Below are positions 12,920-27,615 of a DNA stretch of 64,000 nt, one piece after another. Made by a program: the position numbers and the translations under genes. The notes beneath the pieces are model-generated. The model was given only the letters and a program-made list of their open reading frames with translations. It was not told where the DNA came from and did not search any database. The stretch is from Escherichia phage Ec_Makalu_002: the sequence record MN709127.1; one strand, 5' to 3'. Each line of letters begins with the position of its first letter. Position 1 is the first letter of the stretch.

Positions 12920-13398
12920 GCTAAATCATTGCAATATTTTAGTGCCTTAGTTTGAAACTCTGCGCTGTTAAGTTCTTCATAACGGTCATAATCACCGTTT
13001 AATGCTGCCTTTCTTGCTTCTTGTTCTATCTGCATGTCAGACATGATAATACAACGATCCCGCGCTTTCATCTTCTCAAGTTGTATAGACTCTTCTTGTT
13101 GCTTGCGCAATTCTTCTTGATGCTTCTTTTCTTCTCGTGCTTTCTCTTCCCGCGCTTCTTTGATTGCATCTTTGAACATCTGCGTTTGTGGTGCTAAACC
13201 AACTTTAACGCGATCCACGTCTCGACGTTCCATTTTAGAAATAAAACATGATTCGATCTGGTCATCGCTTGCATATGCTGCTTTACATTCACGAAGCAAG
13301 AAAACCGGATCTGATTTAGCATTCATCATAGCTTCCATGTTAGTACAACCAGTAAGCATGAATGCAGCCGCAAGACCAATCAGTTTAATCATTTTCAT
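12913..13398 (-). CDS. predicted lipoprotein (signal peptide, lipobox LTGC), coiled-coil rich
   Basis: MKMIKLIGLAAAFMLTGC N-terminus; Lys/Glu-rich middle. Confidence 0.55.
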   Translation of the reverse strand: MKMIKLIGLAAAFMLTGCTNMEAMMNAKSDPVFLLRECKAAYASDDQIESCFISKMERRDVDRVKVGLAPQTQMFKDAIKEAREEKAREEKKHQEELRKQQEESIQLEKMKARDRCIIMSDMQIEQEARKAALNGDYDRYEELNSAEFQTKALKYCNDLAK

Positions 13399-14219
13399 TT
13401 AGTCACCTCACCGAAAATTGTAAATTGTCTACGATTCTCATCGCCGAAAGATTCTACTACGTCGTTTACCTTGATGCAAGTCCCGCGCGGTAAAATTACT
13501 TCACATTCGCAAGGATTCCATGCAATAGACCCAACAACAAAACCTTTATGATCTTTTACGTCAATTACCCATGATACATTACAAGAATGTTGCATCTTTC
13601 CGGTCATTGATTCATATCGATTCTCACAATAAAGGCTAGTGCTGTTTGAAAGCCATCCTCCAAAGATGATCGGTGTCATGCTGGTCGATACAAAGTTTTT
13701 AAAGGTAAATTCCTTATCTTCAATAATACGCTCTATTGTCTGAATGTCAAGATGTTGACCGCGATAAAGAGTACCGTTTAACTTTTCGGTTTTATCCATG
13801 ACACAATCCATCAAATCGACAATCTCTGATATCTCATCGGTCATGTCTTCTTCCCCTAAGAGAGCACCATTTACCCATTCGTATTGTTCAGACACATAAT
13901 CGCAGATTGCATTATATTCTGCTGGGGTTATGTTGTTATGTTTGTAATGTTTGAATACATTATCTCCAAAATCTTCGGAATGTACTTCATACATCACATT
14001 AATGATTTTCTTGACAAATCCATAATCTTGCGTTTCTTGCTCAAGGAAACGGATAACTTTCACGTAATCATCAAAGTTAATATGATCGCTGATCATTTCA
14101 GTGATCATGTAACCATTAATCCCCTCAATGCCATATGTTTCGATGTAATTATCCATACGTTCCATCATTGATTCGCGTGATTCTTCGGAAAGGCGAAAAT
14201 CCTGTAATTTCTTGAACAT
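13395..14219 (-). CDS. ADP-ribosyltransferase, Alt-like paralog
   Basis: LYRG...FVSTS...ECEVILPRG (R-S-ExE motifs) parallel the ART region of adjacent Alt. Confidence 0.7.
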   Translation of the reverse strand: MFKKLQDFRLSEESRESMMERMDNYIETYGIEGINGYMITEMISDHINFDDYVKVIRFLEQETQDYGFVKKIINVMYEVHSEDFGDNVFKHYKHNNITPAEYNAICDYVSEQYEWVNGALLGEEDMTDEISEIVDLMDCVMDKTEKLNGTLYRGQHLDIQTIERIIEDKEFTFKNFVSTSMTPIIFGGWLSNSTSLYCENRYESMTGKMQHSCNVSWVIDVKDHKGFVVGSIAWNPCECEVILPRGTCIKVNDVVESFGDENRRQFTIFGEVTK

Positions 14220-23747: not shown

Positions 23748-24224
23748 TTATTTTTCTTGATGCTCGCGCTCGTACTTTTCGAAATAAAATTCTACTGGCT
23801 GATCGTGGATTGAAAGCAAGCCAAAGCGTTTAGCCGCACGTAATCCCATGTTACGTTGAATGTACTTCTGGAAGTTCTCGCGTATACACTTACGCCAGTA
23901 TTCTAAGCCCATACAGCTTTTGTAAAGATTGCATTGCACACAAGCCGGATTCATGTTGTCAAGTATATCGTGCTCCGGTTTATGCATTCCTACAACCTTA
24001 TACTTCCACGACCCATCATCATTACGGGCAATTCGTCCATTTTCATCATAGACTACTTTTGAGCGTCGCAATACTGGTTTGATGTGGTCTGCGTGCCAGC
24101 GATCCCCTAGTTCCTCGCCACAATAGGCACAACGTCCACCGTATTTCATTTTCAGGATCTGGCGTTGCTCTTTCTTTGACAATTTTTTAGGTTTAGGGGC
24201 TTTCGCCCCTTCATTATCACACAT
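23748..24224 (-). CDS. HNH endonuclease
   Basis: CAYCGEEL...WHADHIKP...N...CVQCN (HNH with Zn-ligand Cys pairs); 158 aa. Confidence 0.7.
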   Translation of the reverse strand: MCDNEGAKAPKPKKLSKKEQRQILKMKYGGRCAYCGEELGDRWHADHIKPVLRRSKVVYDENGRIARNDDGSWKYKVVGMHKPEHDILDNMNPACVQCNLYKSCMGLEYWRKCIRENFQKYIQRNMGLRAAKRFGLLSIHDQPVEFYFEKYEREHQEK

Positions 24225-25719
24225 CGAATACCTCTTTTACTGTATTTGCAGTGGTCTTGTCGTAGCGAATACGTTTGATGATTGGGAGAAATAAAGAGAA
24301 CTCCGGTTCATCTTCTTTACGTGATTTGCTGCGGATATATCCGTTGCATGTCATCTCAATGACTTTTCCAATCAGGTTATGACGGTCAGCCCATAACATT
24401 TCTCGGTCAAGTTCATTTCGACGATCGAACGGAATTACACGTTCAATACCATCATCACCTTTTTCGGTTGTGGTGTCTGTCAATCCCGATCCGGTGTTAG
24501 TCATCATTCGTCCGCACGCACTACGGACAGTAAAACCGCCTACCTTGTTAGGTTCTTTACTGTGCGGATATACATCAACAATTTCCGCGTCGAAGTCAAT
24601 CACTTCTTTAAATTTAACCTGGTCTTTACTGCGACGATCTTCAAATACACCATGTAAATTTTTAAGGATAATACCTTCTAATCCCATGTTGACATAACGA
24701 TGATATACTTCGCGAGCTTCATCGATATTGTTAACTACAGTATTTTCGATTATCTGAACACGAGGATCGTTAAGTTCTTCAACAATCTGTTTTAGTTCTT
24801 CGAATCGATCTTTATATTGCTTCGTTGCTTTCTCGTTTCCGTAATACACATCACGGTCGATAACATCCCAGACAGTGTAAACAATACATTGGGCTTCTTC
24901 TTTTGGAATAGTTCCTTTCAGTGATTTGTTGAGGATACCATTTCCGGTCTGACGGTCTGCAACAACGGATTCTTTCACTGCTTCCGCTACTGGCGTTAAT
25001 GGCATTTCCTCTTCTTCAAATATCCATGATAGAGTACCATCATAAACGCTCTCAACGAAGTTCTGCGCTGGTGTTTGAGAAAGGGTAGGCATATATACCA
25101 ACTCACCATCTAAAACAATTCCACGGCCTCGTAGACGCTCTAAAACAGCAAACAAATCATCCAGCCCCTGATAGGTATTACCTGAACGGGTATAGATTGC
25201 TAATGTTTCTCCGTCAATATCAGCCATACCACGAGCGCCATCGCTTTTAAGTTGTGCATACGCCGGATATTTGATATTGGCAATAGTCTTATCAGAACAT
25301 GACGATGCAAGGTGGCACGGCTGCTGAGGAATCAGCTTCTTCCATACCTTGTTTGCGGTGGTAGCGGAACAACCGCATTCCAGATCACGATTCAGGACCA
25401 TCATTGCAACTTTAGCATCATCTTCTGACAAGCAAGTCAGAGTATCGGTAACTAGCTGTAATGCAGCATTACCAGTTACTTGACGCGTGGCAAGTTTATT
25501 TTTAAAGACCTGTAATGCACCGGATAAAGACAATACAGACGAATAGCGAGACGGTTTATCGTATTTCTTTACGCCAAACGTAACCTGCTTGCAATATGCC
25601 AGATAAAAGCATTCTTTCAGCGTTTCATTGCTTGCAGATTCTTTCAGGATCTTTTCTTTCAGCGATGTTTTGTCAGTAGCTGCAAGCTGATTAATGATAT
25701 TAAGAATTGACATTTTCAC
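24217..25719 (-). CDS. 30: ATP-dependent DNA ligase gp30
   Basis: AQLKSDGARG adenylation motif with catalytic Lys; aligns with remembered T4 ligase; ATG at about 25713 likely. Confidence 0.9.
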   Translation of the reverse strand: MKMSILNIINQLAATDKTSLKEKILKESASNETLKECFYLAYCKQVTFGVKKYDKPSRYSSVLSLSGALQVFKNKLATRQVTGNAALQLVTDTLTCLSEDDAKVAMMVLNRDLECGCSATTANKVWKKLIPQQPCHLASSCSDKTIANIKYPAYAQLKSDGARGMADIDGETLAIYTRSGNTYQGLDDLFAVLERLRGRGIVLDGELVYMPTLSQTPAQNFVESVYDGTLSWIFEEEEMPLTPVAEAVKESVVADRQTGNGILNKSLKGTIPKEEAQCIVYTVWDVIDRDVYYGNEKATKQYKDRFEELKQIVEELNDPRVQIIENTVVNNIDEAREVYHRYVNMGLEGIILKNLHGVFEDRRSKDQVKFKEVIDFDAEIVDVYPHSKEPNKVGGFTVRSACGRMMTNTGSGLTDTTTEKGDDGIERVIPFDRRNELDREMLWADRHNLIGKVIEMTCNGYIRSKSRKEDEPEFSLFLPIIKRIRYDKTTANTVKEVFDV

Positions 25720-26179
25720 CTCGTTTTGTTAAACGTTCACGAATATCGTTTAGGATACTACAAAATTCCGATTCGGTCAATATGGTCTTTAACGGATCAG
25801 TTCCACCTATGCTATGACGCAATTTCTTATTTCCGGTAGCGAGCAATGCTTTACAAAAATCTGGGTTATTTCGTGCCATCGTAACAAATGCCAGATGTAC
25901 CAGTCTGTAATAATGCTCACTCATTCGATGAATCGGGCGACCCTGAAAATATAGCATGTGATTCTCTATCTTTTCAGTCCTTCCGGTTCTTTTTGCTTTG
26001 CAGCCGTGCATCAAAAAGATTTCTCTTTGTCTCTGAGGGTTCTTAAATCTTAGCCCCTGTAAAAATCCTTCTGTGCTGTTAATATCGCAACCAAATAGAC
26101 GGAATGGCCTTTTATTGAAATTACTCAACTCGCCAGATGGATAAGGTCCACCCGCATAGATATCAATTTCAGAAGTCAT
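25700..26179 (-). CDS. NADAR-domain (YbiA-like) protein
   Basis: GELSNF...P...STEGF.QG.RF and ALLATGNKKL resemble remembered E. coli YbiA; 159 aa. Confidence 0.6.
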   Translation of the reverse strand: MTSEIDIYAGGPYPSGELSNFNKRPFRLFGCDINSTEGFLQGLRFKNPQRQREIFLMHGCKAKRTGRTEKIENHMLYFQGRPIHRMSEHYYRLVHLAFVTMARNNPDFCKALLATGNKKLRHSIGGTDPLKTILTESEFCSILNDIRERLTKRGENVNS

Positions 26180-26333
26180 TGAAACTAATCTCGCTAATCA
26201 GAGAGAACGGATCATAATCGTCATGAGGAATATCGATAGTAATCGAGTGAGGATTTACCCATACACCAAACTGGTCTTCTTCGGTGAATACTTCGGTATG
26301 GATTTCGTGGATGTTTACATTCATAGTTTTCAT
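26169..26333 (-). CDS. hypothetical small protein (54 aa)
   Basis: Hand-translated (MKTMNVNIHEIHTEVFTEED...); overlaps start of downstream gene by about 11 nt. Confidence 0.3.
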   Translation of the reverse strand: MKTMNVNIHEIHTEVFTEEDQFGVWVNPHSITIDIPHDDYDPFSLISEISFNDF

Positions 26334-26378
26334 AATAAAAATTCCTTAATAATCAATAACTTACAAAATCATATAGCC

Positions 26379-26405
26379 AAAATATAGGCGGGATTATTTC
26401 CCGCC
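26379..26405 (-). terminator. terminator hairpin after gene 31
   Basis: GGCGGGAAATAATCCCGCC followed by TATATTTT on minus strand. Confidence 0.45.
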
Positions 26406-26416
26406 GTTTAAACTCA

Positions 26417-26740
26417 TTAACCGTAAACTACCACAATATTCTGTTTGTGTGTTACAGTCCATTTCAGGTCGATCTCTTCTTCCTTCTTAACGCCGTTAAT
26501 AACGTCTGGATGAGGAACTTTATTCATCTTGCCGTGTGGCAGTAGAACAGTTTTACCCAGCAATTCTTTATCTACAGTTTCACCAATATCAATAATCTTA
26601 CCTACCAGCGGAATCTCGCCCATAGTGCGCTTTTGCTCAATAATGATCCCCATAGAGCTTTTTACTTCGGTTCCTGCGCTTTCTGCTTTAGCTTCGATAA
26701 TTACATAATCACCAAGTGCTTTAGGAGTTTTAACGGTCAT
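26417..26740 (-). CDS. 31: co-chaperonin gp31 (GroES-like)
   Basis: 107 aa; GroES-like pattern; position between cd and gene 30 as in T4. Confidence 0.75.
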   Translation of the reverse strand: MTVKTPKALGDYVIIEAKAESAGTEVKSSMGIIIEQKRTMGEIPLVGKIIDIGETVDKELLGKTVLLPHGKMNKVPHPDVINGVKKEEEIDLKWTVTHKQNIVVVYG

Positions 26741-26780
26741 AATTTCTTACCTCTTCAAATCAATACAGTTTAATGATGAA

Positions 26781-27101
26781 TTATTTATAAATTTCGACGA
26801 TCTGCGCTGGAGTCAGCCCGTCTACATTAATCAGACTATCAAGCCCAAAACTACGGAAACCTTCAACTGCAATTTCATATACTGGCAAAGATGTTTCTGA
26901 TTCTTTACGCGGTTTTTCTACATTAGGAACTAACCACTTTTCGTATGTTTCAAAAGGCATCAGTGCCGGATCTCGCGTGGCGATCATCTCGCGGACAGTA
27001 CCATCTTTCTTAGTAAACTGCAAAGAGTGAGTACCGACCGAAAACATTTTCTTTAGTGCTTCACGAAGTGCGATAATATCAATTTGTTCAGTCATTATCA
27101 A
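26781..27101 (-). CDS. hypothetical protein (about 104 aa)
   Basis: ORF track; ATG at about 27095 likely; overlaps cd stop. Confidence 0.5.
   Translation of the reverse strand: MIMTEQIDIIALREALKKMFSVGTHSLQFTKKDGTVREMIATRDPALMPFETYEKWLVPNVEKPRKESETSLPVYEIAVEGFRSFGLDSLINVDGLTPAQIVEIYK
26782..26789 (-). promoter_or_regulatory. late promoter box TATAAATA upstream of gene 31
   Basis: Exact TATAAATA on minus strand about 40 nt upstream of gp31 ATG, inside 3' end of upstream ORF. Confidence 0.4.
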
Positions 27102-27615
27102 TACCCTTCAAATCAGTCAGTAATGCTTTTGGAATACGCGTAACCGTAATGTCGGCTTTATCCAAAATATCAGCCCAATCACGCCCACCATTTCGATCAT
27201 ATGTGTCGCAATAGTATAGATGTTTAATTCCACTGTTTGCAATTGCTTTAGCGCAATCTGGACACGGTGAAGCCGTACACCACATACTAGCTCCTTCAAT
27301 CGATACACCGCTACGGGCAGCAAACAAAATAGCATTTAATTCAGCATGGATCTCGTTTTTCTGTGACCATGCACTATGCTCTGGTCGTTTTTCTGGGATC
27401 ATTTTACCTTCATCATCCAGCCAACCGCTTTTATGTGCATGACAGCTACAGTTTTCTTGTCCTGCTGGAGTACCATTAAATCCAGTAGAAATGATTCGCC
27501 CGTCTTTTTCAATTAGTGCGCCTACCTTCCACGAAACACATTTAGAGTTCTTTGCGATCAGGTAGGCGATCTGCATGTAAGTTTGTGATAACATAATATA
27601 ATCCTCACATATCAA
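27088..27615 (-). CDS. cd: dCMP deaminase
   Basis: HAELNA ... PCPDCAK zinc-binding motifs; aligns to T4 Cd from internal Met (about 27594). Confidence 0.85.
   Translation of the reverse strand: MICEDYIMLSQTYMQIAYLIAKNSKCVSWKVGALIEKDGRIISTGFNGTPAGQENCSCHAHKSGWLDDEGKMIPEKRPEHSAWSQKNEIHAELNAILFAARSGVSIEGASMWCTASPCPDCAKAIANSGIKHLYYCDTYDRNGGRDWADILDKADITVTRIPKALLTDLKGIDND

Follow-up and report, generated by a model that had tools for sequence, protein, structure and literature searches.

What does the small gene next to the DNA ligase gene of Escherichia phage Ec_Makalu_002 (MN709127.1) do for the phage? We have analyzed a stretch of 64,000 nucleotides of this genome (the window), in which an open reading frame (ORF) at 25700-26179 had been described, from its letters alone, as a NADAR (YbiA-like) protein and a plausible counter-defence against DarTG-like systems. 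Our analysis indicates, with a probability of roughly 0.8, that its product is a working AdfN, the Krischvirus ortholog of the product of gene 30.3 of phage T4 and a single-domain N-glycohydrolase of the NADAR fold. Computed here in its support are homology and fold, an active site conserved at the sequence level, a complete C-terminal helix, synteny and purifying selection.

Family, fold and active site of the 30.3 protein

The gene and the parts of it that carry the argument are the following.

25700..26179, minus strand: gene 30.3, adfN ortholog, an ATG-to-TAA ORF for a phage-type NADAR of 159 amino acids and a single domain
26069..26071, minus strand: Glu37 (codon GAA), equivalent to T4 AdfN E36, PnNADAR E43 and EcC7 E88, the contact to the distal ribose
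26048..26050, minus strand: Arg44 (codon AGA), at the site of the phosphate-coordinating Lys (T4 K43, Pn K50, EcC7 K95)
25814..25816, minus strand: His122 (codon CAT), on the last beta-strand; a His at this site marks the phage (gp30.3) NADARs
25709..25774, minus strand: C-terminal alpha-helix, residues 136-157, by DSSP of a structure model; its counterpart is missing in the inactive RB69 allele

The reading frame is exact, 159 codons from start to stop, and the motifs on which the initial annotation had relied are all present (S19-N20-F21...P25, S35-TEGFLQGLRF-45 and A111-LLATGNKKL-120). The protein matches Pfam PF08010 (Phage_30_3) with 133.6 bits (cutoff 36; E=5.3e-39), over profile positions 2-138 of 138, and phrog_652 with E=2e-45. 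Homologs are found in 1509 phage records, and an exhaustive phmmer search with the protein retrieved 977 representative clusters at E<=1e-3. By these profile matches and homolog counts the ORF is far beyond chance, and its product has the NADAR (YbiA) fold. T4 AdfN is 38% identical end to end and belongs to the same PF08010 and PHROG family; the alignment extends to the very end of the T4 protein, and the C-terminal helix is intact. PADLOC gave no match for the protein. Residues 45-151 also matched DltA (7vhv_D) in a single-sequence phmmer search against PDB (E=4e-4; NCBIfam PRK04813, E=0.26), probably a compositional chance match since the fold search gives it no support.

In order to evaluate the catalytic residues, we counted the positions over about 164 aligned domains, made up of the best 150 phmmer representatives, the earlier matches and T4. 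Position 37, which aligns with T4 E36 and with the Glu of YbiA, is Glu in 162/166 scored domains, and position 41, Gln in our protein (Q41), is Gln in 156 of about 164. His122 aligns to the Glu of 'KLVEHT' in YbiA and is His in 160/164 family domains. Across the NADAR superfamily Glu and Lys are conserved, and the last-strand residue tells YbiA-type proteins (Glu) from DarT1-associated (Asp) and phage ones (His) (Schuller et al., PMC11543638), a definition of the phage NADARs by His that is also given in PMC11125620. The expected active-site residues were therefore recovered by alignment at Glu37, Gln41 and His122, with one departure, the replacement of the conserved Lys by Arg44.

Position 44 is Lys in 152 domains of the family and Arg in 10, and 4 domains have neither. 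All 10/10 Krischvirus orthologs compared have Arg44, as does a metagenomic relative that is 69% identical and comes from the same syntenic block, while Lys is found in the relatives that come next (about 60% identity). The 10 Arg domains make up about five groups; in three of them the Glu/Gln/His site is otherwise intact, and the other two are degenerate second domains of tandem proteins. Judging from the alignment, Arg44 is a natural Lys-to-Arg variant that keeps the basic character of the position.

The same ten Krischvirus genes were compared pairwise by the Nei-Gojobori method. The median ratio of nonsynonymous to synonymous substitution rates (dN/dS) was 0.038, indicating strong purifying selection; 29 of the 38 variable nucleotide sites were third codon positions, and all ten copies are 159 codons long. 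The low dN/dS, the excess of third positions and the uniform length argue against decay of the Arg44 allele.

A megablast search with 24000-27200 retrieved 59 phage records at 95-99.5% identity, all of them Krischvirus (RB49, JSE, GEC-3S, Ec_Makalu_001/_003 and others), with Ec_Makalu_003 at the top (99.5%). Over its whole length the window is collinear with RB49, where it corresponds to about 99.9-163.9 kb. The RB49 and JSE records name the gene '30.3, conserved hypothetical protein', and in the ten records that we checked (RB49, JSE, Makalu_001, GEC-3S, SSG23, Brandy, Skers, kaaroe, G2248 and Makalu_003) the name was 'hypothetical protein', 'gp30.3 conserved hypothetical protein' or 'Bacteriophage protein GP30.3', with a function in none. 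Our results allow the 30.3 gene of RB49-type phages to be annotated as an AdfN-type anti-DarTG1 NADAR; beyond annotation this has little importance. The function of the gene family was published in 2024-2025 and the observation is in this sense already known; the only detail without prior record is that Arg has become fixed in place of the phosphate-binding Lys.

Proposed role and the alternatives

There is direct evidence for the role of the gene in T4. Gene 30.3 was renamed adfN, for anti-DarT factor NADAR (Johannesman et al., Nat Commun 2025, PMC11825919), and it is necessary for growth of T4 and T2 on DarTG1 hosts (PMC11825919). In vitro the T4 protein strips DarT1-modified DNA of its ADP-ribose. 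It also rescues RB69, a phage in which a frameshift has cost the native 30.3 protein its final 15 residues (PMC11825919). E36A, K43A and truncation of the C-terminus each lower its activity, K43A retaining a partial rescue (PMC11825919). T4 gp30.3 hydrolysed guanosine-ADP-ribose in vitro, but not the thymidine or cytidine equivalents (PMC11125620, PMC12945103). In a transposon screen, 30.3 insertions were lost specifically on DarTG1 hosts (bioRxiv 10.1101/2025.11.20.689424).

By orthology with T4 AdfN, the counter-defence proposed in the initial annotation is supported. From T4 and from mutagenesis of bacterial NADARs we infer that the substrate would be DNA carrying guanine-linked ADP-ribose, that the target would be DarTG1 and that the Arg44 form would be competent in vivo. 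Upon infection of a DarTG1 host, DarT1 would ADP-ribosylate the N2 of guanine in the single-stranded DNA of the phage and block its replication. AdfN would then bind the ADP-ribose, with Glu37 at the distal ribose and the basic residue 44 at the diphosphate, His122 presumably standing in for the catalytic acid of the last strand. Cleavage of the bond between ribose and guanine would return unmodified DNA, and replication could resume.

Several points weigh against this assignment. The identity to T4 AdfN is only 38%. A profile search against the NADAR family had been proposed as the check, and it succeeded with PF08010 as given above, while the Pfam NADAR model itself, PF08719, reached 14.9 bits (E=0.032) and stayed under its threshold of 35.1. 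Arg44 stands in place of a conserved Lys, and in the DarG1-NADAR of E. coli C7 (EcC7) the substitution K95R kept hydrolysis in vitro and lost the rescue from DarT1 (PMC11543638), so that a change from Lys to Arg is not automatically neutral. Full activity of AdfN-T4 depends on a further T-even factor, and tblastn at E<=0.01, run over the window and the complete RB49 genome, detected no counterpart of T4 30.1, 30.2 or 30.4. The phages assayed against DarTG1 were T2, T4, T6, RB69 and Bas35-47, with no Krischvirus among them, and we found no literature pairing Krischvirus or RB49 with DarTG.

The Arg could also belong to a true AdfN homolog whose function was shifted or narrowed by the substitution. 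Such a 'K95R-like' protein would act on another ADP-ribosylated nucleic-acid substrate, against a different DarT1 variant, DarT1-like toxin or guanine ADP-ribosylating defence, or would have other cofactor needs, even independence from the T-even cofactor. We consider this unlikely, although the residue replaced is present in 93% of family domains, K95R of EcC7 stays active in vitro but loses the rescue in vivo, and the Arg, being fixed and maintained by purifying selection, is not the product of decay. Also in its favour, Krischvirus is devoid of AdfA and of the T4 30.1/30.2 neighbours, and base specificity does vary among NADAR subfamilies (G only versus G plus C). However, the change is conservative and keeps the positive charge for phosphate binding, and the remaining active-site positions are all canonical. 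The T4 K43A mutant still rescues in part, hence the position is not all-or-none, and no positive evidence pointed to another substrate. Since the engineered bacterial K95R split the activity in vitro from that in vivo, the natural variant offers an inexpensive way to examine what this residue does.

Catalysis itself might be dispensable, as in a NADAR-like protein of T5 that is a non-enzymatic inhibitor of Retron-Eco1 (PMC11825919 ref. 37), and the 30.3 protein would then just bind ADP-ribose or a host effector; but AdfN-T4 requires its catalytic residues for full activity and showed no binding to DarT1 in a two-hybrid assay (PMC11825919). Or it might erase the ADP-ribosylation made by the Alt/Mod enzymes of the phage itself, given that two Alt-type ADP-ribosyltransferases are encoded about 10 kb away in the window and ModB elsewhere in the RB49 genome. 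Against this, Alt and Mod act on proteins, whereas the substrates described for NADARs are nucleic-acid bases and small-molecule N-glycosides, in no case proteins (PMC11543638, PMC11125620, PMC12945103), and the transferases are located outside the 30.3 operon. We hold both versions to be very improbable. A housekeeping YbiA-type N-glycosidase, working on intermediates of the riboflavin pathway or other small molecules without any part in counter-defence, can hardly be credited: the Glu that defines the last strand of that type is His in the 30.3 protein, PF08719 stays below threshold, the T4 ortholog has proven DNA de-ADP-ribosylation and an anti-DarTG1 role, and the gene is found among DNA-metabolism genes of a lytic phage.

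Gene block and other ADP-ribosylation genes

Gene 30.3 is part of a block on the minus strand, whose other members are listed here in the order in which they are read.

26387..26405, minus strand: GC-rich hairpin followed by a T-run, terminator-like, between gene 31 and orf54
26169..26333, minus strand: orf54, 54 amino acids, phrog_15277, the first gene past the hairpin
24217..25713, minus strand: gene 30, ATP-dependent DNA ligase (PF01068, E=3e-22; phrog_114, E=5e-141)
23748-24224, minus strand: HNH endonuclease (PF01844; phrog_2118, E=8e-55), directly 3' of the ligase

The position beside DNA ligase is thus as first annotated. Gene 30.3 comes after orf54 and overlaps the ligase gene by 14 nucleotides, so that the ligase ATG (25713) and its Shine-Dalgarno sequence GAGG lie inside the last 30.3 codons. 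The stop of orf54 overlaps the 30.3 start by 11 nucleotides, and the ligase stop codon is overlapped by the HNH endonuclease gene. The hairpin, which forms the upstream boundary, is labelled as a terminator in the records of Ec_Makalu_001, GEC-3S and G2248, and we detected no sigma-70 consensus promoter in the short stretch that follows it. The hairpin together with the overlapping stops and starts therefore indicates a single block running from the terminator through orf54, 30.3 and ligase to the HNH endonuclease.

The small orf54 is translationally coupled to the 30.3 start. A homolog of it (contig L016, 4847-5011) is located upstream of the 69%-identical NADAR in the metagenomic contig, i.e., the pair is co-conserved; orf54 has no similarity to T4 30.4. 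At the other end of the block, gene 30 of T4 is followed by alt.1, and because T4 has no HNH gene at that position the endonuclease is likely a mobile insertion.

The two ADP-ribosyltransferases that had been noticed in the same genome are indeed within the window.

13395-14219, minus strand: paralogue of the C-terminal catalytic half of Alt, 274 amino acids, 31% identity, PF03496
14299-16350, minus strand: full-length Alt, 683 amino acids, 26% identity to T4 Alt, PF03496

At the Alt locus T4 has the fragmentary duplications alt.-1 and alt.-2, in contrast to the two adjacent genes found here. In the T4 annotation, the targets that Alt and ModB ADP-ribosylate are host proteins, RNA polymerase among them. 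For the Alt-type enzymes of the window and for the ModB of RB49 no evidence of a link to the NADAR was found.

We have also searched for the other anti-DarT genes of T4. For AdfA (T4 61.2) neither the window nor the complete RB49 genome gave a match at the same tblastn threshold; in RB49, the unrelated dc1 and dc2 fill the place between 61.1 and gene 41. An ortholog of AdfM (T4 tk.4) is present in RB49, outside the window, with 44% identity. With AdfM detected and AdfA not, the anti-DarT repertoire of Krischvirus, as predicted from these searches, appears to be AdfN and AdfM only. This suggests that RB49-type phages would use AdfN without AdfA against DarTG1, and AdfM against DarTG2.

Comparison with known systems

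The closest parallel is T4 AdfN itself. Both genes are located between 31 and 30 and code for the core NADAR domain only, with the same Glu, Gln and His and an intact C-terminal helix. Unlike T4 AdfN (K43), the Krischvirus protein has Arg44 and a C-terminus that is 7 residues longer. The surroundings differ too: in T4, 30.1 and 30.2 lie between 30.3 and the ligase gene and 30.4 is upstream, whereas in Krischvirus 30.3 directly adjoins and overlaps the ligase gene, because 30.1 and 30.2 are absent, and the upstream gene is the unrelated ORF of 54 amino acids.

Bacterial NADARs are more distant. DarG1 (E. coli C7; Geobacter lovleyi, 8bat) has 219 amino acids versus 159, of which 137 residues could be aligned. 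We rejected a DarG1-type antitoxin as identity for the 30.3 protein, which lacks the N-terminal extension, has His instead of the last-strand Asp and has no DarT toxin next to it. Unlike DarG1, it is the product of an orphan gene of a lytic phage, with orf54 and DNA ligase as neighbours; AdfN-T4 cannot substitute for DarG1 in uninfected cells. E. coli YbiA (2b3w) has the last-strand Glu where the 30.3 protein has His122, and YbiA-type enzymes also remove cytidine-linked ADP-ribose, which the phage NADAR of T4 does not.

Domains of the gp30.3 type are also found in multi-domain metagenomic relatives (P0022, P0023, P0025, P0040, P0061, P0065, P0066, P0069 and P0079). Among them are fusions to a calcineurin-like phosphoesterase (P0069) and to BspA-type leucine-rich repeats (P0061), tandem NADARs with Glu and Gln lost in the second copy (P0065 and P0079), and a recurrent architecture of about 470 amino acids whose N-terminal 320 or so have no Pfam match (P0025, P0040 and P0066).

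Other phages have arrived at similar solutions. AdfN-Bas32 (T5-like) and AdfN-Bas60 (Vequintavirinae) are, like AdfN, orphan phage NADARs that counter DarTG1 enzymatically (PMC11825919), but they belong to other NADAR clades, were acquired independently and neutralise DarT1 without infection, which the gp30.3 clade does not (PMC11825919). AdfM (T4 tk.4), which acts against DarTG2, is the second enzymatic antitoxin-mimic of T4-type phages; it has a macrodomain fold, and its substrate is the thymine-linked ADP-ribose left by DarT2, not the guanine-linked one.
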